Below are positions 539 to 16,625 of a stretch of 64,000 bases of DNA, piece by piece (within the stretch, counting starts at the first letter, position 1; each line of letters begins with the position of its first letter). A program made the translations under genes and the position numbers. The DNA is from a virus (taxonomy: Duplodnaviria > Caudoviricetes), in IMG/VR virus record IMGVR_UViG_3300021400_001346, positions 32,001-96,000 of that record. The stretch is one strand, 5' to 3'. The notes under the pieces are model-generated. The model was not told where the DNA came from and made no database searches. It saw nothing but the letters and a program-made list of their open reading frames with translations.

Positions 539-607
539 GTAATTTCCTCCTAACAGTATTAGTATATTTGAGAAAACTCGACTTGTCAAGCAAAAATTGG
601 TTTGGCA

Positions 608-1323: not shown

Positions 1324-1331
1324 TCTAATTT

Positions 1332-1360
1332 ATTATAACAAGTTTGCCAGGCTTAGTCAA
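1332..1360 (-). promoter_or_regulatory. sigma70/sigmaA promoter
   Basis: TTGACT-17 nt-TATAAT. Confidence 0.8.
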
Positions 1361-1466
1361 GCAATTCTTGATATAATCGAGAGAGTTATTCAATCGCGAT
1401 GAGGAAGGGTCGCTGCGCCTAGAGGGCGCGCTCCCCACTTCCTATCTTGTGTTTAGTTTAGCCTAA

Positions 1467-1982
1467 CTATTCGACTGGTGTTAAGTTAGCACTATTAACT
1501 CCGTCGCAAAGTGCGTAAGTATTAACTGTGCTGACTTTGATTGATGCTAATTCGACTTGGTCGCCTTTAGCGATATTACCTTTCTTAACGAGTCCGTTGA
1601 TACGTCCGCTAGAAAGTTTTTCAAGTTTCATGACATCTGCAAGTTCTTCAAGAGTGAAGCGACCTTCAAAACTTGCGGCTGCCTTTAAGACTTCTGCTTC
1701 ACCGTCAGTGTAGTTGTAGTTGCCTTTTCCATTTGGATTAGCGATTGGGTCAGCAGTAACGAAGGTATAAGTATTGACCTTACGTGTTGCTGGTTTGTTA
1801 ACTTCAACTGTTCCTGATGCAGCGATAAGTCCTTTTCTCATTGCGCCAACGATATGTCCAGCGACAAGTTTAAGACCTGTGCTTTCATTGAGTTGAGCAA
1901 GTGTTTGATTTGGTTGTGCTTCAAGTGCTTTAACGATAGCAATGTCATTTGCTGTGTAAACGATTTTCTTTTCTTTTGCCAT
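1467..1982 (-). CDS. Tandem double winged-helix-like DNA-binding protein, 171 aa
   Basis: Two internally similar halves (YT..E/D..I/V.KA..TL.EL....KL..G.I.G..KKG.I...V.....VNTY), similar to 5680, 8853 and 56845. RBS AAAGGAG before ATG 1982. Confidence 0.65.
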   Translation of the reverse strand: MAKEKKIVYTANDIAIVKALEAQPNQTLAQLNESTGLKLVAGHIVGAMRKGLIAASGTVEVNKPATRKVNTYTFVTADPIANPNGKGNYNYTDGEAEVLKAAASFEGRFTLEELADVMKLEKLSSGRINGLVKKGNIAKGDQVELASIKVSTVNTYALCDGVNSANLTPVE

Positions 1983-2143
1983 AATATTTTCTCCTTTGAT
2001 AAACCCCAACGTAGTTGTAAGGATCCCGGGGTCGGTCCTGAGAAGTAGTGAAGACTTAACTATTTCTTCTTTACTTCTTAACTATAATTATTATACGGTA
2101 GTTGCTCGGCTAATGCCAGAACAATTTTCATTTAGATGGATAA

Positions 2144-2371
2144 TTATTCCGTGCGCTGAATTGGGTGATTGCCTTGAATGACGGCGTCCTTAACCATTTC
2201 TAGCACTTGCTTCTTTGCGGTTCTCGCTGGCTGGTTAGGTATGGCGGCGGCGCTATATGAGTAGCCGTCGGCGCATTCGAAAGAGGCCGTCCAAGCATCA
2301 TTGACGTTTTTGTAATAATTAACATGCGCCTCAATATATTGCTCGTTAGTTAGTGGCTTTTTAGTTGGCAT
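2144..2371 (-). CDS. Hypothetical protein, 75 aa
   Basis: ORF with GGAGG RBS, overlapping the upstream gene. Confidence 0.6.
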   Translation of the reverse strand: MPTKKPLTNEQYIEAHVNYYKNVNDAWTASFECADGYSYSAAAIPNQPARTAKKQVLEMVKDAVIQGNHPIQRTE

Positions 2372-2672
2372 CGTCCTCGTCCTCCTTTGAATAGTAGAAG
2401 GCATCGTCACGCAAGTAAGCAGTTAATTCCTTGTCTTCCCATGGTGCTGGACGGACGTCTTCGAGGTCGCTATTGAACCAAATGTAGCCGCTACTTTCAT
2501 CGCAGGTAGTGTCATGAGCCTCGACGATGGTGCAATAGCCATCGCTACCAATACGGATTTCATAGCCCATGTCCATAAGAACATCGAGCAACTTGTTAAA
2601 ATTGCGGCGATCCTTCATTTCCTCTGGGGTGAATGGTATGCTTACATCTGGTCTGTGGTTATCTACTTTCAT
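2361..2672 (-). CDS. Hypothetical acidic protein, about 103 aa
   Basis: ORF directly after the sigma gene, GGAG RBS. Confidence 0.65.
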   Translation of the reverse strand: MKVDNHRPDVSIPFTPEEMKDRRNFNKLLDVLMDMGYEIRIGSDGYCTIVEAHDTTCDESSGYIWFNSDLEDVRPAPWEDKELTAYLRDDAFYYSKEDEDDAN

Positions 2673-2674
2673 AA

Positions 2675-3502
2675 TTATTTTCTCCTTTCCCAATTGAGTT
2701 TGATAGTTGATAAGGTTTCATTTAATATTTGACGGACACGTTCACGGGTGATGCCGAGTTCAAGTCCGATGGCTTCAAGTGTATGTTCAGAGCGCCAATC
2801 TTCTGGATCAGTAGGTTCGCCGAGTCCGAAACGCATTTTGATGATGGTTTGGACACGTGGTTTGAAGGTGCTGATGACAGACATAAGGCGGTCATGAGTT
2901 AAACTTTCTTCTGCGTAGCCGCTTGGTGTTGGTTCACTGGTATCGGCGCAAAGGTCGGACAAGGTGTCTTCACTGTCGTCGCCGAGTGGCATATCGATGC
3001 TGTAAGTGTCTGACTTCCAGCCGCGCAATGCTTCAACTTCATCTGCGGTAATACCCATGCGGGCCGCGATGGACTCGTTGGTGATGTCAACACCTTCGTT
3101 GGTGAGGTCGTTGATGGCCGCGCGATACTTTGAAAGTTTGGCGTAGATGTGGGCTGGAATACGAATATTACGACCCTTGTCGGTAATAGCTTTGGTGATG
3201 GCTTGTTTAATCCATGGAGTCGCGCAGGTGCTAAAACGATAGCCAAGGTCTGGGTTATATTTTTCTACTGCGGTGATAAGTCCGGTGTTGCCCTCCATGA
3301 TAAGGTCGAGCAAATCGAGATGTCTATTTTGATAGTTCTTCGCAATAGAAACAACTAGACGCAAGTTGCTATTGATAAGTTGTTCACGTGCGGCCGCATC
3401 GCCATTACGGTATTTATAGGCAAGGTCAAGTTCTTCCTCTGGTTTGAGAAGAGGATATTGACCGATGGTAATTAAATAATCTTTAAGTGTATTTGTGCTC
3501 AT
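2675..3502 (-). CDS. RNA polymerase sigma-70 family factor (RpoD/SigA-like, no region 1.1)
   Basis: Region 1.2 (DYLITIGQYPLL..EE), region 2 (LINSNLRLVVSIAK, DLIMEGNTGL..AVEKY, RFSTCATPWIKQAI), region 4 (TLEAIGLELGITRERVRQI). Confidence 0.95.
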   Translation of the reverse strand: MSTNTLKDYLITIGQYPLLKPEEELDLAYKYRNGDAAAREQLINSNLRLVVSIAKNYQNRHLDLLDLIMEGNTGLITAVEKYNPDLGYRFSTCATPWIKQAITKAITDKGRNIRIPAHIYAKLSKYRAAINDLTNEGVDITNESIAARMGITADEVEALRGWKSDTYSIDMPLGDDSEDTLSDLCADTSEPTPSGYAEESLTHDRLMSVISTFKPRVQTIIKMRFGLGEPTDPEDWRSEHTLEAIGLELGITRERVRQILNETLSTIKLNWERRK

Positions 3503-3540
3503 TTGCTTAAATCTCCTTTTTTAACTTTCCTTATACTAAT

Positions 3541-3686
3541 ATTATACATGATAATTTGCACTTGGTCAACAAATTTTTGCCCGGCCTGAATAACTTTTCG
3601 CGGCGAGCAACGCGCACTATCCCAATTTAATATTAGGTTTTTATTATTTATATATTAATTATATAGTAGAAGCACGGCTTCGTCAA
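3541..3686 (-). promoter_or_regulatory. Two tandem sigma70-type promoters upstream of the sigma gene
   Basis: TTGACC-17-TATAAT (about 3541-3569) and TTGACG-17-TATAAT (about 3658-3686). Confidence 0.7.
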
Positions 3687-3846
3687 CAATTTTTGCAGCA
3701 TAATCAACAAATTTCCGTCTAGCCCTGAGCAGCTGCTGAGCGCCGCGGAGTGGTAAGCCAAGTCCTGCTGCTGCCGGGAGTGAATGGCATGCCAATCGCT
3801 GCTTCTACCTAAGCCCACCCAACGTCGGGTCGGTCGGGGCAGACGG

Positions 3847-3937
3847 AAAAAGCCTAGTCAGTTTCGACTAGGCCAAACCCAAATAAAAAGGTCCCCTTGC
3901 AGGACCCGGTTCATAAAAAGATTGCGGCAACAATCTT
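3847..3937 (-). terminator. Three stacked intrinsic terminators
   Basis: Minus strand AAGATTG..CAATCTTTTT, GGTCC..GGACCTTTTT and GCCTAGTC..GACTAGGCTTTTT. Confidence 0.8.
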
Positions 3938-4586
3938 ACGTGGTATTGCCGTACCACGATTTACCGCTACATCTGCTGATGCTCACTTTCCGCGGCGAGA
4001 CGACCATTTCTATTTTACGCCACATGGTCGAGGAGTAGTTGGTCAATATTATTTTAGTTACTTGTTTGACTAAGCGCTTGCAACCATCGCGCTAAATCAG
4101 GGGTGCCCAATCCGCATCTGTTTTATTTTCTGTGGTACAGTCCCACGGACCATGCCGGTTTCTCTCCGGCGCCTCCGTGCCCAGGAGTCAGGGTGTCGTC
4201 AGCACATCGTTGGTCCTAGACGGTTGCGGCCGCCACAGACCATTGCCACCTGGATAGTTTTCAAGGCACTATCAATCGCCATCGGAGTTACCTTTGTCAG
4301 CGGCTCCTCAATATGACATATTCTTTCATTAGCGCTCTACCCTTACACGTCGGGTAATTAGCCGCGCTCCTCTACTACTTGCTGCGTGTCAGCTGCACCA
4401 CGTTTGGCCGAATCTCGGGACATACGTGTTACGTCTGTGCCTAACGGTAGATTACGCTCTACTGCACTGCACCGTGTTCTTCCCAGCCGAATTGGTCATG
4501 CCAATTTCTTACTCAACCTTAGTCCTGGTAGCCGAGATATACACGTCACGTTCGTGCGTCCGGCAAGTTATTGCTCTTGCTGCGCT

Positions 4587-4676
4587 AATTCTATACTTCA
4601 ATCGGAGTTGAACCGTCTATTCATCCTAGTCCCTTTGCTAGGCGCGCCTTTCCGCTCGGCCATTTATCATAGAATT
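4587..4676 (-). ncRNA. Degenerate tRNA-like element; anticodon not assignable
   Basis: D arm TGGCCGAGCGGAAAGGC, stem CCTAG/CTAGG with an 8-nt loop, T loop GGTTCAACTCC, outer stem AATTCTAT/ATAGAATT. Acceptor stem irregular. Confidence 0.6.
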
Positions 4677-4732
4677 CGGGAATTAATACTAATGTGGAGG
4701 TTGCCTCCACCCCGCATCGTCTGCGGATGCCT

Positions 4733-4819
4733 TAGTAGCCAATCGGAGTCGAACCGACATCTTCCTCTATCCGGTTTAGGGTGCTCTGTCCGCGGGTATT
4801 GCCCTTGAGCTATGGCACT
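4733..4819 (-). ncRNA. Degenerate tRNA-like element with an enlarged D loop
   Basis: AGTGCCA-TA-GCTC-[20-nt loop containing GGG-CAATA-CCC]-GAGC-A-bulged anticodon arm (loop AACCGGA)-GTCGG-TTCGACT-CCGAT-TGGCTACT. Confidence 0.65.
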
Positions 4820-5153
4820 GTATATGCTTTATAGTGCATTGGCTAGCACTTCGTTGACTTAGTGCAGTTTTGGTTGTTTAAAGGGGCGTTACTCCCTGCC
4901 AGCTAGTTTCTTGTCCACCCTCCGATCCTGTAAACCGAAGGGGCGGCGCACGACTGCCGCGTCGGAATGATTGGGGTCTATCCTACCCAGTGAGGTCTCG
5001 CTCACTTCGAGAGTCGCTTTGGCTAGATGCTATGCTCATCGTCCGGGTGTTTAGTCTCTTAAGCCCAACTACTTAACGGCTAGTTAACCGACAGCAGGCT
5101 CTTTCACGTTTTGACGTCTTAGTATTCACCCTGGTTACTGCTGCGTGGGTGTT

Positions 5154-5202
5154 TTGGGACCAGCCAAGGAGTTAAACCTCGGACTACCAGTCGTGCCGGC
5201 CA
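5154..5202 (-). ncRNA. Minimal tRNA-like domain (acceptor stem plus T arm, no anticodon arm)
   Basis: GGCCGGC..CTGGTAG..CCGAGG-TTTAACT-CCTTG-GCTGGTC-CCAA. Confidence 0.4.
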
Positions 5203-5420
5203 TAGTTATCATGGGGAAGAGTTGCAGGTAATCTGCCTGCCTCTTGCTACGGGGAATTTAAGCCCGTGCTCGGCGATTTCTCTGAGGTACGTTGTCCCCG
5301 CCTTGCGGCTGCCGGTCATTGGGTTCCAACCCATGTAATAGGGTGCTCTCTTCTTTGTTTTTTAACGAGGGGTATACGCCGAGCAGGGAGATGTTCCTCA
5401 ATTAATTTCTTACTATATTT

Positions 5421-5449
5421 ATTATACTACTTCGTGGCGGCTTAGTCAA
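5421..5449 (-). promoter_or_regulatory. sigma70 promoter for the 1.5-kb ncRNA
   Basis: TTGACT-17-TATAAT with no downstream ORF. Confidence 0.8.
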
Positions 5450-5639
5450 CAACTTCTTCAGTAATTTCGTACATATTGTCGAAGTCGAGCCAATAATGAC
5501 CGCTCTCTTGGTCTCCAACTATGCGGTATTGATTGTAGTTGGTGGTCGCCATTTCTTTAACCCAGGCGTTGAATTGGGCTTGGTCCATGACTATGGTGGC
5601 GCCGCCGTAGCAACGTCTAACTGTATATCTTTTGTTCAT
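5442..5639 (-). CDS. Hypothetical protein, 65 aa
   Basis: ORF with AAGGAG RBS. Confidence 0.6.
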   Translation of the reverse strand: MNKRYTVRRCYGGATIVMDQAQFNAWVKEMATTNYNQYRIVGDQESGHYWLDFDNMYEITEEVVD

Positions 5640-5679
5640 CTGTAATGGTGCTCCTTCCTGGGTGGTGCGACCAGCAAGA

Positions 5680-5928
5680 CTATTCAGTCTTGCTAGTTTC
5701 TAACGCAGTGTTGCCTAAAGCATATTCGGCAACTTCAACGTAAACGGTCTTTGCGACCTTGCGGGTACCGACCTTAACTAAGATACCTGCGGCGACCATA
5801 GCATTAGTAGTGCCGGTCTTAACTTCCTTGCCGACCTTTTCGCTGATTTCGGCTAAAGTCATGCCCTTTTCGGCTCCCTTTAATGCATTAACGACTGCAA
5901 CTCTAGTTTCATTTACTTTAACGTTCAT
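5680..5928 (-). CDS. Small winged-helix-like DNA-binding protein, 82 aa
   Basis: GMTLAEISEKVGKEVKTGTTNAMVAAGIL; paralogue of 8853..9128; strong RBS. Confidence 0.7.
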   Translation of the reverse strand: MNVKVNETRVAVVNALKGAEKGMTLAEISEKVGKEVKTGTTNAMVAAGILVKVGTRKVAKTVYVEVAEYALGNTALETSKTE

Positions 5929-5962
5929 AATCTTTTCTCCTTTCCTTAATCCTTATATTAAT

Positions 5963-6196
5963 ATTATACACCTTTTATTCGGTCTAGTCAAGAGTTATTT
6001 TGACTAGGTAGTTAATTTTTTAAGATGTATCTTTTTACTTCTTATTAACTAACTACATATATATTATACACCTTTTATTGGGTTTGGTCAATTGCAAATC
6101 TTGGCTAAGTAGTTTGCATTTTTGCGACCGTAAGATGTTTTCTTTTCTTCACCACCTTACATATAATATTATACGCCAAAACTTCGACTATGTCCA
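5963..6196 (-). promoter_or_regulatory. Three stacked promoters about 100 bp apart upstream of the wHTH gene
   Basis: TTGACT, TTGACC and TGGACA, each -17-TATAAT, at about 5963-5991, 6063-6091 and 6168-6196; no ORFs between them. Confidence 0.75.
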
Positions 6197-6237
6197 TTGT
6201 AAAAACTGGCTAGATAAGTTTGCATTTCTTGGCTTCC

Positions 6238-6430
6238 TGCTGCTTCTATGCAAGTTAGTCTTGACAAACCCGGCCCGAAGGGCAGACGGAAAATAAGCAC
6301 AACTCGGTAGAAAAGTCAAGCAAAAAATTGTGAAAGCGCTTTCTTGCTGCTGCTTCTCAAAAAACTCTTGACAAATCCGGATTTTTGGGGGCAGACGGAA
6401 ACAGACGGATCCGTCGGGCCAGACGGAACG
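6238..6430 (+). repeat. Two copies of CTGCTGCTTCT..CTTGACAAA.CCGG..GGGCAGACGGAAA plus clustered AGACGG motifs, oriented opposite to the array downstream
   Basis: Copies at 6238-6292 and 6346-6401, further AGACGG at about 6403 and 6421, palindrome GACGGATCCGTC. A related copy lies at 3798-3850. Confidence 0.8.
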
Positions 6431-6609
6431 CCGCGAAAAAAAGACGACCGAAGTGGTCATCTATCTTTTCTTTGGTTTCGTTCTTTTATTTTTGCCAGGC
6501 TTGAAATATGGATGCGGCAACAAGTCTTGACCGCTATAACTATTAGTATGGTAAGGACCTATTGACCCCAGCAAGTATAATAAGTTTCTTTGTGATGATT
6601 TCATATTTA

Positions 6610-6849
6610 CTACCTCTCATGATATGCGGCATCAAGCCATAGGTTAGTCCAGTGCCAACCTTTAATCGTGTCTTCTACCACCGCGGCATCTGTAATTTCA
6701 TACCAGCCATAAGGTTCTCTGTCAGTAGACCTAATAACAACTACATCATTTGGATTTGCTTTGCGAAGTACACTCATTAATTCTTTTACAGTCATTGTGT
6801 GGTCAGTGGCGGAGACCGAGACCACGGCTTTATTTTTGGAAAGCATCAT
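6610..6849 (-). CDS. Hypothetical protein, about 79 aa
   Basis: ORF; MTVKELMSVLRKANPNDVVVI resembles small phage proteins. Confidence 0.55.
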   Translation of the reverse strand: MMLSKNKAVVSVSATDHTMTVKELMSVLRKANPNDVVVIRSTDREPYGWYEITDAAVVEDTIKGWHWTNLWLDAAYHER

Positions 6850-7294
6850 AACTTTCTCCCATCCGTCTACTTGGTCTGTCATGAGCAAACAACCATGCGC
6901 CCTTATTTTGAATATAAACAGTAAAGTTTTCATTGTTATAGGTAAAATCTATATAATCGCCGAAGCATTTACTGTGATTTCTTTCAGTAATAACTATACC
7001 TTTATAATTGTGGTATTTTTCCCACACTTTACTTTTTATTGAAGGAAGTTGTATAGCAATTTTTCCGTCTACTGGTAAATGGTTATAATCAAACCCTACA
7101 TTTGGTTTTAAATTACTGAAAACTCGGTCAAAACGATTTTCTCTGATGGCATCTAAACATCCGTCTAAGATATCTTCAGGAGTAACTGCCATTGTATAAG
7201 TATTAGTAACGGTTGTTTTTGTATGTTTTAGTTTTCCGTCTGCATCATAAGATGCGTATGTAATAGTTGTTTCTTGTCTTTCTAAGATTTTCAT
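6830..7294 (-). CDS. Hypothetical protein, about 154 aa
   Basis: ORF with GGAGGG RBS. Confidence 0.65.
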   Translation of the reverse strand: MKILERQETTITYASYDADGKLKHTKTTVTNTYTMAVTPEDILDGCLDAIRENRFDRVFSNLKPNVGFDYNHLPVDGKIAIQLPSIKSKVWEKYHNYKGIVITERNHSKCFGDYIDFTYNNENFTVYIQNKGAWLFAHDRPSRRMGESYDAFQK

Positions 7295-7313
7295 AACTTC
7301 CGTCTCCCTCCGT

Positions 7314-7595
7314 CTAGTCTTCACCTAATTCTAATTCTTCTTTTGCCATTGCAATGAATTGGTCTTTACTTAAATCTAACTTGGCATTAAGTATTTCTGA
7401 TACTTCATAAGGGCTTACACTTGAATATATTGCGCCGTCCATATCTACAAACTTATAATTCCAATAGATTTGTTCTAATATTTCAGTGTCGCTCCAATCT
7501 GGATAATTATCACGATACCAATCATATTCTTGGCGCAAATTTTCTTCGTCTAGGTCAATTGTAAACTCTTGATTAATACTAAAAGTCAATTGCAT
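7314..7595 (-). CDS. Hypothetical acidic protein, 93 aa
   Basis: ORF with AAGGAG RBS; D/E-rich. Confidence 0.65.
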   Translation of the reverse strand: MQLTFSINQEFTIDLDEENLRQEYDWYRDNYPDWSDTEILEQIYWNYKFVDMDGAIYSSVSPYEVSEILNAKLDLSKDQFIAMAKEELELGED

Positions 7596-7613
7596 ACCTT
7601 CTTCTCCTTCCGT

Positions 7614-8231
7614 CTAGGCGCGGGCTAATTCCCACGCCTTTAATAAAATTGCTAACTCAATTTTACTATCTTCAAGTGCCGTGTGTTCTTCCTTATAGTC
7701 CGTCTGACCAGTTAAGTATCTAAACACGGTTTCGGCTTTTGCTTGGCAACGAGGTCTTTTGTGTTTTGTCATAAAGCCGTTTTTTCTACAAAATGTTTTA
7801 TACTCTTCCGTCTCAGTGATATGTGGGTCGGTTAAACCTTTCCATATATCTTTAATTCCGTCTGCGGTTGGATTGGTTTTGCTGTTAAGTTTTTCGCAAG
7901 TCTTTGCAATCGCACGGGTATCAAAGCGTGAATTATAAGCATAAATTCCGTCTACGCCATATTTATTCATATCTCGTTTTAACATACGCAAGATATAAGA
8001 CCATTTGGTTTTCTTACAATATCCGTCTGCTAAACGTTGGTAATAAATTGGCAACTTGTTGGCATAATATGCGGTCTTCATGAGGTTGGCATTATCAAAG
8101 ATTTCGCTGGTGAGATAATCACGAGCCTTAATGATGTTGTCCGTCTCACTATCGTAAACGACATAGCCTAAGTCGTAAACTGATGGGTTGAATACCCCTA
8201 ATGTTTCAGTGTCAAGAACAATAATTTTCAT
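7614..8231 (-). CDS. DEDDh 3'-5' exonuclease
   Basis: ExoI VLDTET, ExoII AYNSRFD, ExoIII HTALED. Confidence 0.9.
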   Translation of the reverse strand: MKIIVLDTETLGVFNPSVYDLGYVVYDSETDNIIKARDYLTSEIFDNANLMKTAYYANKLPIYYQRLADGYCKKTKWSYILRMLKRDMNKYGVDGIYAYNSRFDTRAIAKTCEKLNSKTNPTADGIKDIWKGLTDPHITETEEYKTFCRKNGFMTKHKRPRCQAKAETVFRYLTGQTDYKEEHTALEDSKIELAILLKAWELARA

Positions 8232-8303
8232 GTCCGTCTGGTTCCCCTTTCTCTCTTTCTTTTTTCTTCTTTATGATAATATTATATCATGAATAGATAT
8301 TGC

Positions 8304-8608
8304 TGTCAATACCTATTTAAGAATTCCGTCTACCGCGAGGTGATAAGCCATTATCCGCAGAATAATATTAACGTATGTAATATTAGAGAGTTTTGTATCC
8401 TTGCACTATCAACTGCAAGTTGTGGCAACGAAATTCTTAAATAGATACTATTGTCAATACCTATTTAAGAATTCCGTCTGCCGCGGGCTGGCTAGTGCCA
8501 TTATTCTCACGTGCGCTTATGGATTTCCACCTCAGGAATAGAAAGATTTGCCATTCTTACCTATTTGCCCCTGTTAAGTCGTGGCACGGAACTCTTAAAT
8601 AAGTATTG
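8304..8608. repeat. Two tandem ~150-bp cassettes, each with ~28-bp terminal inverted arms around a variable core
   Basis: Left arm TACCTATTTAAGAATTCCGTCTRCCGCG, internal GCCATTAT, right arm AAGTYGTGGCA(A)CGRAAYTCTTAAATA. The 60-70-nt cores are unrelated. Confidence 0.8.
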
Positions 8609-8852
8609 TTATTTCCGTCTGGTGGAAGGTTTCACTTAGGTTAACCATCATTTTACTAGTAATAAGTGAAGACCTTCCGTCTACCCATTTCTCCTTGGGC
8701 GGCTTACCCTTACGTGCGCCTACTATACCCTACGTGTCCGTCTGGCGAAAAACTTGATAGACAATGAGACCATTTTCTCATTAAGATAGGTTCAGGCTAA
8801 GGGGTCCGTCTGAGCCCATCTTAATGAGAGGAAGGAATTACCTTCCGTCTCC

Positions 8853-9128
8853 CTATTCAGCGACTAATTTGTAAACGGTGTCGCTATAAGATTTATGACC
8901 GATGACTTCTTTATCATAGACAATGTCGGCAACAAACTCTCTCTTTCCGTCTGTGTTGACAATACCTTTTGTCTTTAAGGTATTAATAGAGCCTGTTTTA
9001 AACTCTTTGCCACTGACTTTTTTGATTTCTCTTAAAGTCATTCCGTCTGGGAATTGCTCCTTATTGTTTGATAAGATTTCAACGAATGATTTTTGAGTGT
9101 CGTTCATAACCCATTTTCTGTCTGCCAT
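8853..9128 (-). CDS. Small winged-helix-like DNA-binding protein, 91 aa
   Basis: GMTLREIKKVSGKEFKTGSINTLKTKGIV; paralogue of 5680..5928. Confidence 0.7.
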   Translation of the reverse strand: MADRKWVMNDTQKSFVEILSNNKEQFPDGMTLREIKKVSGKEFKTGSINTLKTKGIVNTDGKREFVADIVYDKEVIGHKSYSDTVYKLVAE

Positions 9129-9163
9129 AGTTATTTCTCCTTTCCTTAACTTTCTACTATATA

Positions 9164-9620
9164 ATTATAGCATACTTGAAGCAATCGTTCAAGGGTTTAT
9201 TTCAGTTTTCCGTCTGCCGTTTTTCCTTTTTATAAGTGGAACTCTTTAACTTTCTTACCTTAATATTATATCATAATATTTAAGGCTTTGCAAGAACTAT
9301 TTTTAACTTTCCGTCTGCGAACTTTTGCTCGGCTTACGATTACTAGGTTAATTAATTCTTACTACTATATTATATCATATTCTCATATGATATTCAAGCA
9401 CTAATTTTAAGTTTCCGTCTGCGCCGTTCCTTTCAACCAGCGCCAACTCAACTTTCTTCTACCTTAATATTATATCATAATATTTAAGGCTTGTAAAGAG
9501 ATAATTTTATCTTTCCGTCTACCCCAAACTTATTTGAGGCACGGCTTACTTATCTCTTGTATGTAAATATTATATCATATTTACATATAAGAAACAAGTA
9601 GTTTCTACTCATTTCCGTCT
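9164..9620 (-). promoter_or_regulatory. Five tandem ~101-bp units, each AGACGG plus a -35/extended -10 promoter
   Basis: -35 boxes start at 9597, 9497, 9397, 9293 and 9192, each 17 nt from TG-x-TATAAT, with AGACGG exactly 23 nt upstream. Confidence 0.9.
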
Positions 9621-9937
9621 GAAGGTCCGCTCACGCTAACTCTACGATTTAATGTAGTCAACACCTCATAGAATTGACCTGCGACCAATTTATTCCATTT
9701 TCCGCCTGGGTTATCAATTGTGGCTTCTTCTTGAAACACAACCTTTCCGTCTGCATTTTGTCTGCCATATCTAATGTTATATTGTATAGACTTATAGTCA
9801 TCATCTGCAATTATGGTTGTGCTATCAATACAAACATAGGTTCCGTCTAGTGGCGCATATTCTTCACGCATAATGGCATTTAATTCTTTTTCTAACTTTT
9901 TTATTTGTCCGTCTGTGATTTTAATTTTGTTATTCAT
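9605..9937 (-). CDS. Hypothetical protein, about 110 aa
   Basis: ORF with its own promoter (9974-10002) and RBS. Confidence 0.65.
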   Translation of the reverse strand: MNNKIKITDGQIKKLEKELNAIMREEYAPLDGTYVCIDSTTIIADDDYKSIQYNIRYGRQNADGKVVFQEEATIDNPGGKWNKLVAGQFYEVLTTLNRRVSVSGPSDGNE

Positions 9938-10046
9938 AACTTTTTCCCCTTTCAATTTTTTCTTACCTATAATATTATATCATGCCTACTACGGCTTTGC
10001 AATACCCCAATTCATTCTTCCGTCTCTAAGACGGAAGGCTTAGGGC

Positions 10047-10517
10047 TCAACCTTGGAGCACCTTACCTTCGCTTCCGTCTACATCGGCATTTAATACTGT
10101 TGCAAGGATTGAGGTGTGAGGGTAAATCTTAATTGCGGTTCTTCCTCCGTCTGCCCATTGTTTGCAATTAACTCCATAGTCATCGAGTAAAATGCCTGTT
10201 TTAGTTTTTGCAAAGTCGCTCTTGTTTTGTCCATTGCGCATAATAATTACTCTACGCATAGGCAATTCAGGAAGGTATTTTTTAATCCGTCTGCGCTTAT
10301 CTTTATCGGCTTGTTTGTTTGGCGAGGCTGATAAAATACGAACGCTATAACCTAACCCAATTAAGGCTTTAATTCCGTCTAAGTGTCCTTGAATTGGTGG
10401 AAGATTTGCAAAGAAACCTTTTTCCGTCTCAAAACGATTTCTCCATCCGTCTGCGCTATAGAAATCGGCAATAACTCCGTCCATATCACAATAGATAAAC
10501 TTTTTTGTCTTTTTCAT
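10047..10517 (-). CDS. HAD-family 5'(3')-deoxyribonucleotidase (NT5C-like)
   Basis: IYCDMDGVIADF, FFANLPP, ILSA, ILLDDY..N..W. Ends at TGA; TAG follows 7 codons later if read through. Confidence 0.85.
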   Translation of the reverse strand: MKKTKKFIYCDMDGVIADFYSADGWRNRFETEKGFFANLPPIQGHLDGIKALIGLGYSVRILSASPNKQADKDKRRRIKKYLPELPMRRVIIMRNGQNKSDFAKTKTGILLDDYGVNCKQWADGGRTAIKIYPHTSILATVLNADVDGSEGKVLQG

Positions 10518-10705
10518 AGTGTTTCCCCTTTCTATCTGATATAATTATATCATGCTTACATCTGCTTGTCAACCCGTCTGCCTGATATAATTATGCAGTA
10601 GTTAGGAATGTTATGGAATGCTTAGAGGAGGTTCACCCCTAACTACTCTATAATTATATCATAGTGGCGGTGGCTTGTCAATGCCACCAACCACCTTTCC
10701 GTCTG

Positions 10706-10930
10706 CTAATATTCAACTCCAAGTTGATTACAAAGCCTTCTAATCATTTGCGACCTTGTTTCGAGTTTTCTAACAACCTGTCCGTCTGGCAAAGTCTTCA
10801 TATAGATTTGCTTTTGACTGCAAGCACTATGCCGTTTTCCGTCTGCACTTTTCTCTAGTAATGATACGGTTGTCCATCCGTCTCTATCAACGACCTTATA
10901 CTTTTTAACTTTTGGTTCTTTTGTTTTCAT
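10706..10930 (-). CDS. Small basic hypothetical protein, 74 aa
   Basis: ORF with its own promoter (10955-10983) and RBS. Confidence 0.6.
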   Translation of the reverse strand: MKTKEPKVKKYKVVDRDGWTTVSLLEKSADGKRHSACSQKQIYMKTLPDGQVVRKLETRSQMIRRLCNQLGVEY

Positions 10931-11009
10931 ACCCCTTAATTCCTTTCTAGTAATATTATATCATACTTTTTGTGGCTTGTAAATAGCCTATTTTATTTTT
11001 CCGTCTGCC

Positions 11010-11129
11010 CTATTGTCTTAAAGCAATCCAAACATAGAGTTGTTCGCTCTCTTTTTGTTCCGTCTCATCCGCCTTTCCGTCTGCGACCTTTTGCTTTAAT
11101 TCTTGTAAGCGTTGTTCTAATTCTTCCAT
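11010..11129 (-). CDS. 39-aa peptide MEELEQRLQELKQKVADGK..
   Basis: Own promoter (11155-11183) and RBS; in frame with the upstream kinase across its TGA. Confidence 0.55.
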   Translation of the reverse strand: MEELEQRLQELKQKVADGKADETEQKESEQLYVWIALRQ

Positions 11130-11165
11130 ACCCCTTAACTCCTTTTCTAATAATATTATATCATA

Positions 11166-11603
11166 TCAATATACTAATTGCAATAGTTTATCTTTTAAAT
11201 CCGTCTGGATTTTTTTCGCACATACTTTTATTTTACGGCAATTTAAATTATTATAATATTGCATATCTTTTTCAAAATTTTGTATACAATCCATTAAGGC
11301 TTTTAAATTTCCGTCCGTTTTATTACGTGCCCATCTAAACATTAAGCGGGCTATCCATTCTTCTTTACTTCCGTCTGGAATAATTAGAATAAAATTTACT
11401 TTTAATTTCATAAGTGTTTCAATAACACATGGGTGGGCTGATAAGAAAACATCTTTTCCGTCTGCTTCTATTTTGCGTGCAGTATAAATATAATTAACTT
11501 GCCAATTTTTTACTTTTTTAAAAGTATTACTATCTAAATCAATACCGTCCGTCTCAGCGCACAATGTTGTTTTACCTACGCCACTATATCCACAAAATAG
11601 CAT
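11166..11603 (-). CDS. P-loop NTPase, nucleotide-kinase-like, 145 aa
   Basis: N-terminal Walker A GYSGVGKTT followed by IDLDS; NMP-kinase-like size. Confidence 0.75.
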   Translation of the reverse strand: MLFCGYSGVGKTTLCAETDGIDLDSNTFKKVKNWQVNYIYTARKIEADGKDVFLSAHPCVIETLMKLKVNFILIIPDGSKEEWIARLMFRWARNKTDGNLKALMDCIQNFEKDMQYYNNLNCRKIKVCAKKIQTDLKDKLLQLVY

Positions 11604-11638
11604 ATTTTACCCCTTTCGCCCTTTCTCACTAGTTAGGT

Positions 11639-12124
11639 TTAAAACCTAACTAGTGTTTCTAATACTTTACTAACGCCCTTAATTTTTCCGTTTTTAGCAA
11701 AGTTGTAATATTTAGTATTTGAACGATAGACACCATAAGGGTCGACCATAATGAGTTCTTTATACTCGCCGTTTTCATAGTCTTGCAATTGTTTTTCACT
11801 AATACTTGCGTATGCGACCGAGTTCGTGTATTTAATTTCATAGTCGTGATTATTAAGTTTTAAATCTACACGACCAGCACTATATTTACTAGCACTTTTT
11901 TGATTTTTAAGTAATAATTTAATCAAGCATTCAACGACCGAGCCACGATTTAAAACTTTGCCATTTCTAGCGACCTCGCACGTAATTTGCGCTTTATTGT
12001 CTAGCATATTGCATAATGAAATTATAGCATCATTGCAAGTGTGATTTTTTGCGTTTGCTTTTGTGTCGTTGATATACATATCACGGACGGAACGAATAGA
12101 TAAAGTTTGAATTGTGTTTTCCAT
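11639..12124 (-). CDS. Putative PD-(D/E)XK restriction-endonuclease-fold nuclease
   Basis: RGSVVE ... RVD-LKLNNHDY-EIK pattern; first gene behind two strong promoters. Confidence 0.55.
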   Translation of the reverse strand: MENTIQTLSIRSVRDMYINDTKANAKNHTCNDAIISLCNMLDNKAQITCEVARNGKVLNRGSVVECLIKLLLKNQKSASKYSAGRVDLKLNNHDYEIKYTNSVAYASISEKQLQDYENGEYKELIMVDPYGVYRSNTKYYNFAKNGKIKGVSKVLETLVRF

Positions 12125-12162
12125 AAAATAACCCCTTAATTTATTCAACTTTTTAATAAGTC

Positions 12163-12301
12163 TTTTAACTTATTACACTTATAATTATAAACTTTTATTT
12201 TTTGTTGTCAATACTTTTTTTAAAAGTTTTTTAATTTTTTTTGTAATTCGTTTTTTAACTTATTACACTTATAATTATAAAGATATATTTTATAGTGTCA
12301 A
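12163..12301 (-). promoter_or_regulatory. Two tandem consensus promoters sharing a 28-bp direct repeat
   Basis: TTGACA-17-TATAAT and TTGACA-16-TATAAT; repeat TTTTAACTTATTACACTTATAATTATAA; A/T tracts upstream. Confidence 0.8.
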
Positions 12302-12420
12302 TTGCAAAAACGATTTTAATATATTGCAAAAATTATTATGTGGGGGGGGGTAGTATTAATTTTTTTCACATTTTTTCAAAAATTCCGGCCCACCTCTGGT
12401 AGAAAATTTATATGCTCCAT
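12300..12420. other. Poly-G tract with A/T tracts; candidate genome terminus or packaging-initiation site
   Basis: G9 at 12342-12350, an abrupt composition change, and position between the early module and the GIY-YIG/terminase genes. Confidence 0.4.
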
Positions 12421-12434
12421 TTTTTGATGACTGC

Positions 12435-13397
12435 CTACTTCTTATTCAACCCAATCTCCGTACACCCGTACCAGTCGATCCACCATCTTTCTCTTTCATT
12501 CAACAGTCTTCTATCATTCACCCTCTCAACTACTTCTCAGTAGAAATCTTCAATCAGATGGTCCTCATACAACTTCTCACCTCCACTACTCTCCACTCCT
12601 ATCATCTTTTTAGCGTGTTGGTACCATCTCTCCTTAATATTAACTGCCTGCCCAACATAGCAAACCCTAACATCATCTTTCAACACCAATCTATAAATGC
12701 CGCAACAACCGTCGGCTTCTTCTCTCTTCACCAATCGTTGCATGGCTGGCATTCAGACCTTTCTCCATTCGATGGCCGCCAATTCACTTTTCAAATCCCC
12801 GTACTCTTCCTCGATCGTCCTAATCAGTTTCACTAACTTCATGTCTCTCCCACTCACTTCAAGCGGCCAACCATTTTCGCCACCTTCTTCCTTTCAGCCG
12901 CGCAAGACCGCTAACCTATTCTCTGTCTGTAGCCTCTCCAATTCTTCCACCAGTCTTTGAACTTCTTCTTTGCGGCGACCCAACACGCTGTCGACTTGAG
13001 TCAATTCTTCCTTGGCATGCACCAAATCGGCCGCCACCTTCTCCATTTCAGCTTGGCGTTCATTGAGAGCCGCGAGTTGTTGTCCAGCATGGGCGCTCAA
13101 GTCTTCCTGTTGACCCTTCAGAATATTCGCCCTCTCTTCTCAATAATTCACCTGGTTTTGAAGTTCATCAATGCGGCCACATTTGGCTAATAGAGCCTCA
13201 TTTGACGCTGTTACCTTCTTTAACTCCTCAGCCGCCTTATCTCGTTCCTCAATAGCCTTAGTTAACTTAACTACCAATTGCCTAACTTCATCGGCATGGT
13301 CGTCACTTTTATCCTTCTTATATTTAATTAAAACGGTTGTAACAATTAACGCCGCGATTAATACCATCGCCACGCTTACGCATATTCCTATTACCAT
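12435..13397 (-). CDS. Membrane-anchored coiled-coil GIY-YIG endonuclease, 320 aa; four internal TGA
   Basis: TGA at 13140, 12894, 12753 and 12537 join three track ORFs. N-terminal hydrophobic helix, GIYRL..CYVGQAVNIKERW, and LNERERWWIDWY..GLN beyond the last TGA. Confidence 0.85.
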
Positions 13398-13444
13398 ATT
13401 ATCTCCTTTTTCCTATTATAATAAAAAAAGTTGGCCCGCGCCAA

Positions 13445-13669
13445 CTATTTTTCCTCATCGAAGCCTAAACTTTCCGCATCGTCTCCTTCCAGAGACGCCA
13501 TGATGCGGGCTCAAGTAGCCTCATCGAGTTCGATATCATCAATCAGTTTAGTTTCGGCATCGAATAAATGCACGAAATCAACTGTTTCATCTAATTGTTC
13601 ATCTGTTAAAAATTTTTCGGCATCTAATTCTACACCCGTAGGTCCGCCATTCTTATTTTCAATTTTCAT
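13445..13669 (-). CDS. Very acidic 74-aa protein; one internal TGA
   Basis: RBS GAGGT; MKIENKNGGPTGVELDAEKF..DEAT*ARIMASLEGDDAESLGFDEEK; absent from the ORF track. Confidence 0.6.
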
Positions 13670-13814
13670 ATAATACCTCTTGTTAATTTACTTTATAAAA
13701 GTTTCTATTAATTATCAAAAATACATTTTCAGGCTACCATTACTATGAAAAAGCATTTTTGAATTTTTCAGTTTTATTGCATTATACTGATAGAAAGGAG
13801 ATATTAGACATCCT

Positions 13815-14813
13815 ATGATAAAATATAACTATGGTACTTGCCCTAAATGCGGCCGCCATAACGTAAAGCTAGTTTATTCTAATAACCCATTAAGCGGCAC
13901 TACGATTTGTTTCAACTGTGTAAAAGATAACCTCGATTATCAAAACTTATCACATGCCGATTTTTTCTGCCGCACTTATAACATTCCATTCGATCCAGAA
14001 CTCTGGTTACAATATTGCGACGAAGTAGGCAACGACGTTTTTGAAGAATACACTTCTCTTCAACTTGAGTCTCAAGAAGACCACCAAAACCTTTATTATG
14101 GTTCGGCAACCGCCGACCTTTGGAACAAAGTTAATAAAGAATGGGAAAAATGCCGTTCTTTCTCTGAAATATTGCGCAAACTTCCAACCATCAAAGACTC
14201 TTATATGGAACGTGGCCATTTAAAATGGGGCGAGCAATATACTTTTGAAGAACTTATTAAACTCGATTCTATTTACACCCGCACTTTGCGTGCCAATAAC
14301 ATTACTAATCCGCTTCAACGTGAAGCCGTTAAGACGCTTTGCAAACTGCAAATCGAAATGGACGAAGCTATCCGCGCGAAAGACGCCAAGGCCATCCGTG
14401 ACTTTTCTAATGCATGGTCAACTTTTGCTAAACAAGCGGACCTTGAAACCATGATTAATGAAACCAAGACTGATGACATCACTACCGTCGCCGAATTATA
14501 CGACTACATGGAACGTCAAGGTTTCCAATTCAAATACTTTGATGGATTTGATCGTGATGAGGTTGACCGCACCATTCGAGATATCCAAGATGCCAACCGT
14601 CAACTCATTCTCGAATCAACTGGTCTTCAATCACTACTCGAGGAAATGCGCGATCAACGTAACCGCACCCTCGAAGAAGAAAAGACCAACCAAGTCATTA
14701 AGGAGGAAACTCCATTGGAAGACCTTCTCAACTTATCACCTGCCGACGTCGACATTGATACAGAAGACGATTCCGAAGCCATTGAAGAAGATTTTTCTGA
14801 AGGAACAAATTAA
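13815..14813 (+). CDS. Putative terminase small subunit-like protein with an N-terminal Zn ribbon
   Basis: CPKC..CFNC, helical body, acidic tail, directly upstream of TerL. Confidence 0.5.
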   Translation: MIKYNYGTCPKCGRHNVKLVYSNNPLSGTTICFNCVKDNLDYQNLSHADFFCRTYNIPFDPELWLQYCDEVGNDVFEEYTSLQLESQEDHQNLYYGSATADLWNKVNKEWEKCRSFSEILRKLPTIKDSYMERGHLKWGEQYTFEELIKLDSIYTRTLRANNITNPLQREAVKTLCKLQIEMDEAIRAKDAKAIRDFSNAWSTFAKQADLETMINETKTDDITTVAELYDYMERQGFQFKYFDGFDRDEVDRTIRDIQDANRQLILESTGLQSLLEEMRDQRNRTLEEEKTNQVIKEETPLEDLLNLSPADVDIDTEDDSEAIEEDFSEGTN

Positions 14814-14816
14814 CAA

Positions 14817-16625
14817 ATGCTAGTAGACGATTTTTTTGATGATAGTTATATAGATCCTGAAATTGAGGACTATATTAATTTTTTAGACGCAGATGAGCAA
14901 GAAACCACCGGCTTCTTAACTAAAAAGCGCATTGACGCGCATTTTCAAGAGTGCGGCGAAATGCTCAATTTTTTCATTGCCTATCCAGACCGCTTCGTTG
15001 ACATCATTACGCCGCATGAAAGCCACTTCCACCTATTCTTCTTCCAACGTATTATGATTCGTTGCATCGCGCGTGGAATTGCAACTTTCGAGACCTTCAG
15101 CCGTGGTACTTCAAAATCCTTCCTCGCCGACCTCGAAAGATACTTGCACTGCATGTTTGTGCCGCGCCATGATACAACCATCACCGCGGGTACAAATAAA
15201 CAGGCGGCCGAAATCGCTAAACAAAAGATAGTTGATGACTTATGGGTGAAGTTCCCTCTTCTCGCTAACGAAATGCAAAAGCGTAAAGTGGCCGGAAAAA
15301 TTTTAGACGCCTATAAAATGGGTAAAGACTATGTTGAATTTAATTTTAAAAATGGCTCTTCACTCGGCCTCGGAAACGTAAGAGGTTTGCGTCGTAAATC
15401 TCTAATCTTCGAAGAAGTTATCGAACAAGATCCAGTCAAAGTTAATGAAGTCTACATTCCTTTACTTAACGAACCTCGTAAACTTTACAACGGCCTTATT
15501 AACCCTTACGAACCACAATCTCAACAAATATATATTACTACTGCGGGCTATCAAGGCACCTTTGCCTATCAAAAGCTTATCGAAATTTTATGCCGCTCTG
15601 TCTTCGAGCCCGACCATTACTTTGTCCTTTGCGGTACTTATCGTTTGCCGCTCTCCGTGGGGCTTACCTCTAAAAAGCAAATCGAAGACATTATCAACGC
15701 ACCTTCATTCAGCCGCGCGTCCTTCGAACGTGAATATGAAAGCCGCTGAAGTGATGCCCCTGCCGGCGCGGCCTTTAGCAGTAGTGTTGTTTCTTCCTTA
15801 CGTCAAGTTAAAAAGGTTGAACTTAAGGATAAACGTACGGAACTTCAAGTCTCTGAACAGTCATGCTTCTATGTCATCTGCGCCGATATGGCGAAGGATG
15901 GTAGCGCAGACACGGCAGTAGGTGTAGCCAAGGTCACTCCAAAAGACCATTACTTCACTTACAAGTTCGTCAATCTCTTTACCATTCCATCTACTGACTA
16001 CATGGTAGTCGCAAATACTTTCAAGAAAACCGTTCTAGCCTATAATGCCCGATTACTCATTTACGATGCTAATGGTATTGGCGCCGCGATGAGAGACTGA
16101 TTAAACAAAGAAACTACTGACGAATTTGGCAATTTATTAGAAGGTTTAGGTATAATTAATCCGCCAACTTCCTCAGAACGAGACTTGATAAGATATCCAA
16201 AAGATAAGACAATATGTTATGAGATAAAATCTGGAGGAAAAATTGGAGAACAAATCCATTATTTCTTCTTTTCTCGTATGAGTACAGGCGCAATTACTTA
16301 TCCAATTAAACTTAACGAAGCGTTATCTCTTTACTCAAAGAACAAAACATTTATGCAAATGAGTATGCGCAAACAACAAGAATATCTACTTCCTTTCAAA
16401 ACAATGGATTTAATGGAAGAAGAACTTAAAAACTTAGATATCGTTAATACATCTGACAATATGTCCAACTCTTTGCGTATTGTAAGACGTAACCCCAACA
16501 TTCAAAAAGACTTTTTCTCCATGGCGGAGTATTTAGTCTGGGGAGTTAATCAACATTTAGAACTTGAATATTATCGTACTAAGCGTAGTCGTTCTCAAAA
16601 ACGTATTATCGCTTTAGTAAACTAG
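14817..16625 (+). CDS. terL: Terminase large subunit, 602 aa; TGA at 15747 and 16098
   Basis: LFFFQR, FSRGTSKS (Walker A), VRGLRR, LIFEE (Walker B), YITTAG, FEREYESR[W], ADMAK..D nuclease motif, KDFFS. Confidence 0.9.

Follow-up and report, generated by a model that had tools for sequence, protein, structure and literature searches.

A nine-base word, (G/C)(C/T/G)AGACGGA(A) (9–10 bp), fills the early region of this phage and looks like an undescribed, direction-dependent control signal, which is probably read by a small DNA-binding protein of the phage itself. The word is strictly polar and evenly spaced, is selected at the DNA level, follows three positional rules, is conserved among related phages and co-occurs in them with a family of small winged-helix proteins (family A). 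An earlier note on this DNA had described the fixed position of the word upstream of early promoters; the observation is correct, and the phenomenon is much broader than was stated, extending to other phages, to reversed clusters of the word, to a motif-free first gene and to candidate readers. The signal is so strong that it reshapes protein sequences, is conserved over an abundant group of rumen phages and is bound to promoters with single-base precision, yet neither a reader nor a function has been described for it. An answer would reveal how the first minutes are organized in a large virulent phage of Gram-positive anaerobes, with the capture of host polymerase, the insulation of strong promoters and the closing or protection of early DNA all at stake.

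A strand-locked word in the early region

Within the 64,000-nucleotide stretch of DNA analysed here (the window), AGACGG occurs 67 times against an expectation of 12.8 (s.d. 3.5), a count that none of the shuffles reached. Fifty copies form an array at about 6863–11554 on the minus strand (mean gap 96 bp, about one site per 90 bp), all 50 of them in the sense of transcription and distributed over genes, untranslated stretches and promoters, with 33 of the 50 intragenic. The 50 exact cores of this region are accompanied by just eight one-mismatch variants, and the 115.7-kb genome has 57 extended copies in all, 55 of them within the early region. Gaps vary less than under random placement (CV 0.51 versus 0.97), few exceed 130 bp, and no helical phasing was detected between neighbouring sites (Rayleigh p above 0.1 for periods of 9.5–12). 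The array region had no megablast match among deposited phages, a full-text literature search for the word returned primers only, and Rfam gave no credible match over window positions 1–16000 at E up to 1.

Selection in the array genes acts on the DNA and not on the protein. Asp-Gly is 5.8 times enriched in these genes, and its codons are GAC-GGA for 19 of the 21 occurrences, as opposed to 9 of 122 elsewhere. Six copies of the word lie inside each of two minus-strand genes, one for an NT5C-type 5′-deoxyribonucleotidase (10047–10517; PF06941, 32 bits, above the cut-off) and the other for a DEDD-type exonuclease-like protein (7614–8231). In the alignment of the nucleotidase, one position reads ETE (GAG ACG GAA) in two phages and A/P-D-G (GCA GAC GGA) in four, the orthologues keeping the word and shifting the reading frame. 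We rejected the possibility that the intragenic sites are hidden weak promoters, as conservation is confined to positions −3 to +8 of the word.

Arrays of 45–84 copies are carried by at least seven diverged phage contigs (G001–G004, L055, L101 and L108) and by 17 further metagenome loci, all of which have little nucleotide identity to the window, and a distant lineage employs CCCGACGGA as its word. The array phages are a clade of virulent, TGA-recoded, distantly SPbeta-like cattle-rumen phages. The YorL-type polymerase of the present phage is 38% identical to its SPbeta counterpart, and the phage looks virulent, as neither PF00589 (Phage_integrase, searched over the 115.7-kb genome) nor PF07508 gave a match; the assemblies are circular or have arbitrary ends, and the contig ends of the present one fall in a repeated fibre gene. 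It is present, together with strain variants, in bovine gut samples (contigs of public runs, in which no molecule ends show), and one RNA library holds contig pieces matching 5404–6038, 7831–8159, 8860–9489 and 11757–11959, which are no proof of transcription. The sigma-factor relatives G006, L034 and L035 have neither an array nor any other one-strand word.

A host reader of the word seems unlikely, because there is no excess of the word in five candidate host MAGs (Clostridia; about 16–70 non-phage copies versus 21–46 of a control word, counted with phage contigs set aside, the host not being known with certainty) and because single matches at bacterial promoters are preceded by an A, a letter hardly ever found at that place in array copies. 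Scanning 185,579 genomes gave 57 stretches, three of them phage contigs binned into MAGs. Given this preceding A, and a number of single bacterial matches that lies within a rough chance estimate, a reading of the word as a host-promoter element was rejected.

The same counts bear on the idea that a DNA-moving machine reads the word as a polar signal, be it a Chi- or KOPS-like sign for a host helicase-nuclease or translocase, or a ratchet and stop for stepwise genome entry, in which the array would play the part of a first-step-transfer segment like that of T5, with the reversed cluster as its stop. Like Chi and KOPS/SRS, the word is short, purine-rich, strand-biased and tolerated in coding sequence, and its copies face one point from both sides, as Chi sites face a DNA end; it also resembles the Chi sites of Firmicutes (AGCGG, GAAGCGG). 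Entry would fit the many strong co-oriented promoters, which resemble the T7 entry region, and the gene content of the module, which recalls the pre-early region of T5 (deoxyribonucleotidase, nuclease-like genes, small DNA-binding proteins). However, Chi and KOPS/SRS are genome-wide host words for host motors, whereas the array word is limited to 5–7 kb of phage, is not enriched in the candidate hosts and is tied to a promoter geometry for which a polar machine gives no account. Moreover, the motif-free first kilobase would be left unprotected, and convergence points recur every kilobase in the CCCGACGGA lineage. We consider such a machine quite improbable, and the suggestion in the earlier note that the word couples transcription to protection or entry found no direct support.

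Promoter geometry

At nine promoters, whose −35 boxes start at 9192, 9293, 9397, 9497, 9597, 10002, 10681, 10983 and 11183, AGACGG begins exactly 23 nt upstream, as had been claimed; the spacings of 22 at 8309, 34 at 3686 and 7 at 10572 were likewise re-measured, and that at 9597, where the −35 is TTGTTT, was verified by hand. Nine of the ten array promoters share TGATATAAT, while 9192 has TGCTATAAT. On the minus strand, cassettes with a spacing of 23 lie at 11155–11206 (word, 17 nt, TTGCAA, 17 nt, TGATATAAT), 10955–11006 (−35 TTTACA), 10653–10704 (−35 TTGACA) and 9974–10036, whose word supplies one arm of the inverted pair TTCCGTCT-cta-AGACGGAA. Five further cassettes of the same strand and spacing stand in tandem at 9164–9620, 100–104 bp apart with no ORF between them, and feed the winged-helix gene at 8853–9128. 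The cassette with a spacing of 22 is found at 8281–8331 and the exceptional promoter, with the word 7 nt above its −35, at 10544–10579 (both minus strand), and a decayed cassette copy without a −10 is left at 8452–8479. Outside the array, a minus-strand promoter at 3658–3720 has the word at 34 nt, that is, one helical turn more, which is the sole alternative of this kind in the window; a spacing of 34 recurs.

The cassette consensus is ggGCAGACGGAAA, 3–4 nt, AAAAA, gntc, TTG, with the 1-nt slack located between the word and the A-tract. The word stands two helical turns upstream of the −35 and adjoins the A-tract at the position of the UP-element proximal subsite, which agrees with its earlier placement where class I activators and the alpha-CTD sit. 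Across the early regions of eight phages there are 82 promoter-like sites with the word at 21–23, and in the 17 metagenome loci, for whose selection a protein served instead of the pattern, it stands at 22 or 23 in 105 of 121 array promoters. With about one site per 90 bp, the chance that a site falls on either of two given positions is roughly 0.02 per promoter, so that the spacing is far beyond chance, and the data support the word as a real, selected signal tied to promoter geometry.

A fixed spacing might also be mere inheritance from one duplicated promoter unit, the word having no promoter role. The tandem 100-bp units at 9164–9620 would suit this, and cassettes do recombine, strain variants joining them at 9277–9549, 9620–10991 and 10971–11139. 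But the 17 nt between word and −35 differ among cassettes to the point of being unalignable, while the spacing of 21–23 is kept in 187 promoter counts (82 + 105, near-duplicate loci included), among them those of related phages that share little detectable nucleotide identity. Furthermore, both 22 and 23 occur, which implies that indels happen and never accumulate, and the intragenic sites turn over between distant orthologues. The earlier note had thought recent duplication the less likely cause; pure inheritance now appears highly improbable and is already close to refuted.

What the promoter-bound copies do is less evident from the promoters themselves. They had been proposed as a new promoter class, activated by one factor that also coats the intragenic sites. 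The first part is overstated, the core being an ordinary sigma-A-type promoter plus an added upstream element. Nor is activation indicated: every motif promoter has a perfect extended −10, and their −35 boxes are not weaker (1.43 mismatches versus 1.27 in motif-less promoters, p = 0.39, not significant), core-element strength being only a proxy for activator dependence. As these promoters are already near-consensus, the word may or may not activate them. The idea of one factor fares better, however, since the same word carpets the genes and it is simplest to assume one reader for promoter and intragenic sites alike.

Class I activator sites are known from CAP at −61.5, from P2 Ogr near −55 and from phi29 p4 upstream of A3. 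The word is like them in its fixed helical phase above the −35, with an alternative one turn further, and in its place beside an A-tract where the alpha-CTD would bind. It differs in that the core promoters are near-consensus, in that the site is asymmetric and single, and in that the word also fills the transcribed region and is reversed after terminators.

Terminators, reversed copies and a proposed early domain

No terminator occurs in the interior of the array. It is closed by an intrinsic terminator at 6442–6462, the sole minus-strand terminator between 12300 and 6442, and four reversed (plus-strand) copies follow at 6284–6426, the first of them 9 nt past the T-run, the cluster including the head-to-head palindrome GACGGATCCGTC. 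Farther on, a long non-coding transcript ends at two tandem terminators (3841–3907), with a reversed copy (3841–3846) fused to the T-run. Counted over five phages, nine terminators have such reversed copies beginning 0–20 nt past the T-run, and forward copies before terminators with reversed clusters after them are found in G000, G001, L101, L108 and G016; in the CCCGACGGA lineage every unit runs from a terminator through 4–5 reversed copies to tandem promoters. In L011, L101, L108, G001 and G002 a reversed copy starts 1–3 nt after the −10 of a consensus promoter facing back to the array, a position suited to repression. No promoter with a −10 faces the reversed clusters of the window itself.

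Our preferred reading, which we hold only tentatively and a little short of probable, is that a winged-helix protein of the phage binds the word in a direction-dependent manner, makes contact with RNA polymerase at promoters and sets the bounds of an early transcription domain. The word would be a cis-acting, direction-dependent site peculiar to the earliest, host-takeover module, and its most likely binder would be family A, the product of 8853–9128 and its paralogues, with CAGACGGAA DNA as the predicted site. At almost every module promoter one site lies 22–23 bp above the −35, and a protein bound there would abut the upstream edge of the sigma-A RNA polymerase; across the read-through transcription unit, sites about every 90 bp would present the same protein always pointing with transcription; and at the tight reversed clusters 0–20 bp past intrinsic terminators, the complex would halt polymerase reading through, so that the domain is closed. 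Family A as reader, the one-way barrier and the polymerase contact are what we infer here, and several observations sit uneasily with them: 50 to 84 one-way barriers seem more than antisense blocking needs, the promoters look strong unaided, family A is predicted as a symmetric dimer whereas the sites are isolated and asymmetric, and each copy may also be transcribed as AGACGGA, which is compatible with a reading at the RNA level.

On that alternative, AGACGGA(A) would be a signal in early transcripts that some factor of phage or host binds or cuts, with shut-off or protection of the message as the outcome, much as T4 RegB acts at GGAG and switches off early messages. A strand-locked, codon-embedded word is the look expected of such a signal. 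All array copies are in the transcription sense, the array lacks internal terminators, no copy lies upstream of the first promoters, and many reversed copies lie just downstream of same-facing promoters and would also be transcribed as AGACGGA. Yet an RNA signal accounts neither for the 22–23 bp rule nor for the variant at 34, no promoter with a −10 faces the reversed clusters of the window, and at the back-facing promoters the first copy is upstream of the likely start. In addition, the first gene, the 82-aa gene, the long non-coding RNA and sigma are early transcripts without the word. We judge this alternative distinctly unlikely.

Asymmetric sites in opposed groups that form a trap are shared with the Tus–Ter system of E. 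coli and with RTP–Ter, though a direction-dependent effect is here only proposed. Ter sites act on replication forks, and a chromosome has about ten of them, whereas the array has about one site per 90 bp. RTP of B. subtilis is a winged-helix protein; family A showed no specific similarity to it outside the common fold class, RTP coming just 19th in Foldseek with a probability of 0.25.

Candidate readers and related systems

Family A was found in all eight array phages, often as two or three paralogues, and a search of the motif-less relative G006, which is only 74% complete, did not detect it. The prime candidate reader is the 91-aa protein encoded inside the array (8853–9128, minus strand) behind the five tandem promoters; an 82-aa paralogue follows just after the array behind three motif-less promoters (5680–5928, minus strand), and a 180-aa paralogue has two winged-helix domains (1467–2009, minus strand). 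The predicted model (pLDDT 85; helices 10–21, 32–39 and 45–53, strands 57–71 and 74–88) has the H-H-H plus beta-hairpin arrangement of the winged-helix fold and scores Z 8–9 to the globular domain of H1, to ScpB and to ArsR/MarR-type domains. The recognition helix KTGSINTL is common to both lineages, as is the GACGGA core, and between lineages both the wing and the 5′ flank differ (nCA versus CCC). Profile searches of family A and of the other candidate, family B, against sequences of solved structures returned nothing. A 9-bp site and a protein of about 90 aa would make a compact, portable and possibly direction-dependent element, of use for one-way insulators or promoter modules in Firmicutes.

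The wing is the predicted interface of a family A homodimer with two-fold symmetry, which scores 0.42 against 0.04 for the best control; 20 of 30 solved homodimers reach the mark set for this score, compared with 1 of 23 monomers. The runs agree in 100% of contacts, at pLDDT 87–88. A symmetric dimer fits isolated asymmetric sites only if it bridges two of them. It is conceivable, if on balance rather doubtful, that the carpet makes the first-expressed 5–7 kb of a just-injected linear genome a sequence-programmed one-way domain, in which such dimers bridge co-oriented sites. Only co-oriented sites would pair across the antiparallel arms of a DNA hairpin or plectoneme; topological loops would be closed and RNA polymerase held at every promoter, sense transcription would pass, opposite movement would be stopped, and the reversed clusters would serve as an exit gate. 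If true, this would be a nucleoprotein organization of phage early DNA without a described counterpart.

The co-occurrence of family A with the array is matched by that of family B, the 169-aa product (gene 11639–12148) of the first early unit (11639–12301, minus strand; AT-rich consensus promoters with −35 at 12301 and 12211), whose fold is nuclease-like. Family B is the first gene in all eight phages, and in all eight neither the gene nor its promoters contain the word, the array beginning 70–440 bp further on; it co-occurs with the array as strictly as family A, is conspicuously motif-free and is therefore an equally placed candidate reader. As such it would bind the word or introduce a nick into a single strand there. 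Sense transcription would pass where the non-template strand is nicked, and nicks in the template strand (at reversed copies past terminators, and for antisense traffic in the array) would stop polymerase. Residues E65, D87 and E96-x-K98 are invariant, and in fold comparisons every top match is either a PD-(D/E)XK restriction enzyme or Hjc (DpnI Z 5.0, NhoI 4.9, PvuII 4.8), although these scores are weak (Z at most 5.0, Foldseek E at least 0.14). Family B was not detected in the array-less G006 (74% complete), but neither was it found in a 79-kb contig of the CCCGACGGA lineage (71% complete), in which family A is present. Nicking would moreover leave the 22–23 bp promoter rule without explanation, and fifty or more nicks per 5 kb would endanger replication, so that family B as the reader strikes us as unlikely.

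Among repeated phage elements, SPBRE of the temperate phage SPbeta is a 15-bp element at about ten promoters, bound by the tyrosine-recombinase-like repressor MrpR (YopR) (PMC10516654). Both systems place a short repeated element at early-gene promoters, with one phage protein as its reader, which is only a candidate here. The array word differs in being 9–10 bp long, present in 50–84 copies, mostly intragenic and strictly polar, and it belongs to a phage that has no Phage_integrase-family protein and looks virulent.

The pre-early region of T5 includes dmp and the A2 DNA-binding protein. Gene content of the T5 pre-early type is predicted for the present module as well, with its NT5C match, its DEDD-exonuclease-like gene and its protein of PD-(D/E)XK-like fold, and the word bears on the question, raised by T5, of what marks the earliest-entering phage DNA. 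The two blocks share a deoxyribonucleotidase and small DNA-binding proteins. They are also alike as earliest-expressed segments with functions of host-DNA degradation and a repeat-rich, cis-acting boundary (10.1101/866236). The first-step-transfer boundary of T5 consists of DnaA boxes and palindromes in an untranslated stretch (10.1101/866236), whereas the array word is written through the genes.

A one-strand word under selection

In the window, 67 copies of the hexamer AGACGG are present where 12.8 are expected. Fifty of them form an array at 6863-11549, and every one of these is on the minus strand, the sense strand for all genes there. When 215 non-promoter copies from five phages were aligned, the consensus was (G/C)(C/T/G)AGACGGA(A), with no further conserved position from 40 nt upstream to 90 nt downstream. 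Fifty-five of the 57 genome copies of this extended word lie in the early region, and the array contains only eight one-mismatch variants. Copies are more evenly spaced than by chance (CV of gaps 0.51 vs 0.97), with a modal gap of 50-100 bp and few gaps above 130 bp; we looked for helical phasing among neighbouring copies and found none. The single 300-bp gap corresponds to the one array ORF that lacks the word (7314-7595). This ORF looks like a recent insertion; in a strain variant from a public run, 7296 is joined to 7598 and it is gone. Two other local features were seen: a 600-bp ORF-less stretch (8240-8850) with seven copies holds a decayed duplicate (8452-8479) of the 8309 promoter module in which the -35 is kept and the -10 is absent, and a perfect 8-bp inverted word pair (TTCCGTCT-cta-AGACGGAA, 10017-10036) lies directly upstream of the 10002 promoter.

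Intragenic copies are mostly read in the frame xxA-GAC-GGA. Asp-Gly is written GAC-GGA in 19 of 21 cases in array genes vs 9 of 122 elsewhere, and array genes are 5.8-fold richer in Asp-Gly itself. At one aligned position of the orthologous nucleotidase, two phages encode E-T-E (GAG ACG GAA) and four encode A/P-D-G (GCA GAC GGA), such that the word is kept and the protein changed, and in distant orthologues word density is maintained as positions turn over. Along with the even spacing, these codon patterns show that the target of selection is the DNA. The AGACGG observation of the earlier note is upheld: the signal is real, conserved and under strong selection. A pattern scan recovered the same architecture in the viral contigs G001 (130 kb, with 84 copies in 6.9 kb), G002, G003 and G004, as well as in three phage contigs inside MAGs, with patchy nucleotide identity to the window (67-88%, in short pieces).

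Spacing from the word to the promoter

The earlier note had reported that AGACGG begins 23 nt upstream of the -35 box at nine promoters, with distances of 22 at 8309, 34 at 3686 and 7 at 10572, and all of these spacings are correct. Across eight early regions the word stands at 21-23 in 82 promoter-like sites, and the 47 such sites that have no copy within 90 nt upstream are placed before or after the arrays. Seventeen further metagenome loci, fetched via the winged-helix protein described below and so unbiased for the pattern, carry the word at 22 (48) or 23 (57), that is, at 105 of 121 array promoters. The consensus of 154 unique cassettes is ggGCAGACGGAAA, 3-4 variable nt, AAAAA, gntc, TTGaat, 14 nt, TGaTATAAT, with its one-base slack between word and A-tract. 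Duplication alone, which the earlier note had thought the less likely cause of the spacing, cannot account for it, as the intervening bases are randomised and differ among cassettes, yet the distance is held. The proposal that a factor at the word activates these promoters fares less well: their cores come close to consensus, and motif-less promoters do not have stronger -35 boxes, so activation as such is not supported.

This promoter rule would require a reader of the word that acts on DNA, in fixed relation to RNA polymerase. If the word were instead an RNA signal, part of the pattern would be accounted for, but the promoter rule would be left unexplained. The same holds for a Chi-, translocase- or entry-type signal, which also accounts for part of the pattern but offers no explanation of the promoter rule; Chi and KOPS match the word in strand bias alone. 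Class I activator sites match it solely in position.

Two side observations concern the cassettes themselves. A subfamily with a TTGTTT -35 (window 9569-9600; L013 6466, 6822 and 6938; L016 10087 and 10956, the L numbers being loci) has an inverted repeat around TGATATAAT, formed by the spacer and first transcribed bases, whose arms vary among copies with complementarity kept, which points to a conserved hairpin that may serve for processing of read-through RNA. Related-strain contigs fuse cassette to cassette (9277-9549, 9620-10991, 10971-11139), and cassettes appear to be recombination points for early-gene swapping.

Module boundaries and reversed copies

In all eight phages the module opens with a word-free unit, made up of AT-rich consensus promoters and one ~165-aa gene. 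No minus-strand terminators were found inside the window's array, which stops at a terminator (6442-6462). Copies on the opposite strand start 0-20 nt past the T-run of this and later terminators. The window (6284-6426; also 3841), G001, L101 and L108 have three to six of them per cluster, and G002 has one copy only. In several phages, a reversed copy begins 1-3 nt past the -10 of a consensus promoter facing back to the array. In a distant lineage (G016 and L146-L157) the word takes the form CCCGACGGA (43 copies in 9 kb, zero in the control) and the 23-nt rule is absent; each unit there runs from a terminator through four to five reversed copies 30 bp apart to about three tandem promoters. Since reversed copies follow the terminator here as well, the feature common to both lineages is a terminator preceded by forward copies and followed by reversed ones. 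This order, together with the strict polarity, suggests that the effect of the reader depends on direction of approach; polarity is the sole match to Tus/RTP-Ter.

Other elements lie near these boundaries. A second one-strand word, (A)AGCAGCAG, has 6-12 copies near post-array winged-helix paralogues (window 3765, 6237 and 6347; L130, L133, L137 and L139; L028 10440-11100), and G001 has ten copies of TGTAGGTTAA after its reversed cluster; these may be further cognate sites of the paralogues, or an origin. A GC-rich, ORF-less stretch of ~1.5 kb (3900-5440, minus strand) is preceded by a consensus promoter with its -35 at 5449 and ends in two tandem terminators. The stretch, parts of which look like tRNA T-arms, is also conserved in G002 (L031 7600-9240). 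An Rfam search up to E 1 gave no match for it, and it is probably a large structured RNA.

Candidate readers and the phage

The word is confined to phages and not enriched in candidate hosts, which suggests that the reader is phage-encoded. The papers searched contain no mention of the word in this sense. Two protein families accompany every array, and neither was detected in a motif-less relative (G006, 74% complete). The first, family A (~90 aa; 8853-9128 and 5680-5928, with a two-domain form at 1467-2009), fits best as candidate reader. Its array copy lies downstream of five tandem promoters, and its predicted structure is a winged helix. Both lineages keep the helix KTGSINTL and the GACGGA core; the wing and the word's 5′ flank both differ between them. 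A symmetric dimer via the wing is predicted with a score of 0.42 (best control 0.04); among solved structures, 20 of 30 homodimers and 1 of 23 monomers reached the mark. Contacts agree at 100%, with pLDDT 87-88, and the dimer could link a pair of sites of the same orientation. Family B, the motif-free first gene of the module (11639-12148), has invariant E, D and ExK residues, and its fold weakly resembles that of small restriction enzymes (Z no higher than 5). Its binding or nicking at the word would account for part of the pattern but leaves the promoter rule unexplained, and no family B gene was detected in the CCCGACGGA contig. An NT5C nucleotidase and a DEDD-type exonuclease are also encoded in the module, whose gene content is reminiscent of the T5 pre-early genes (10.1101/866236). 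By phylogeny and logic the closest known system is SPBRE/MrpR of SPbeta (PMC10516654), although three of its features have no counterpart here.

The window covers bases 32001-96000 of a 115.7-kb viral contig, complete by CheckV, with 37% GC and a YorL-type DNA polymerase 38% identical to its counterpart in SPbeta-like Bacillus phages. The phage is probably virulent, with rumen Clostridia as hosts, because neither an integrase nor a large serine recombinase is encoded in the 115.7-kb genome, public runs holding the window stretch come from bovine gut, and the MAGs into which related contigs were binned are Ruminococcus and Clostridium. ORF cover of the whole genome rises from 62% to 77% once TGA is a sense codon; in-frame TGA joins ORFs at 12435-13397 (minus) and 14817-16625 (plus), a GIY-YIG-like gene requires four TGA readings, and the array genes have none, unless 11130 is a read-through, which is possible. 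A sigma-70-family factor with regions 1.2, 2, 3 and 4 is encoded immediately downstream of the early module (2675-3502, minus strand), and relatives at 35-49% identity are present in other viral contigs.
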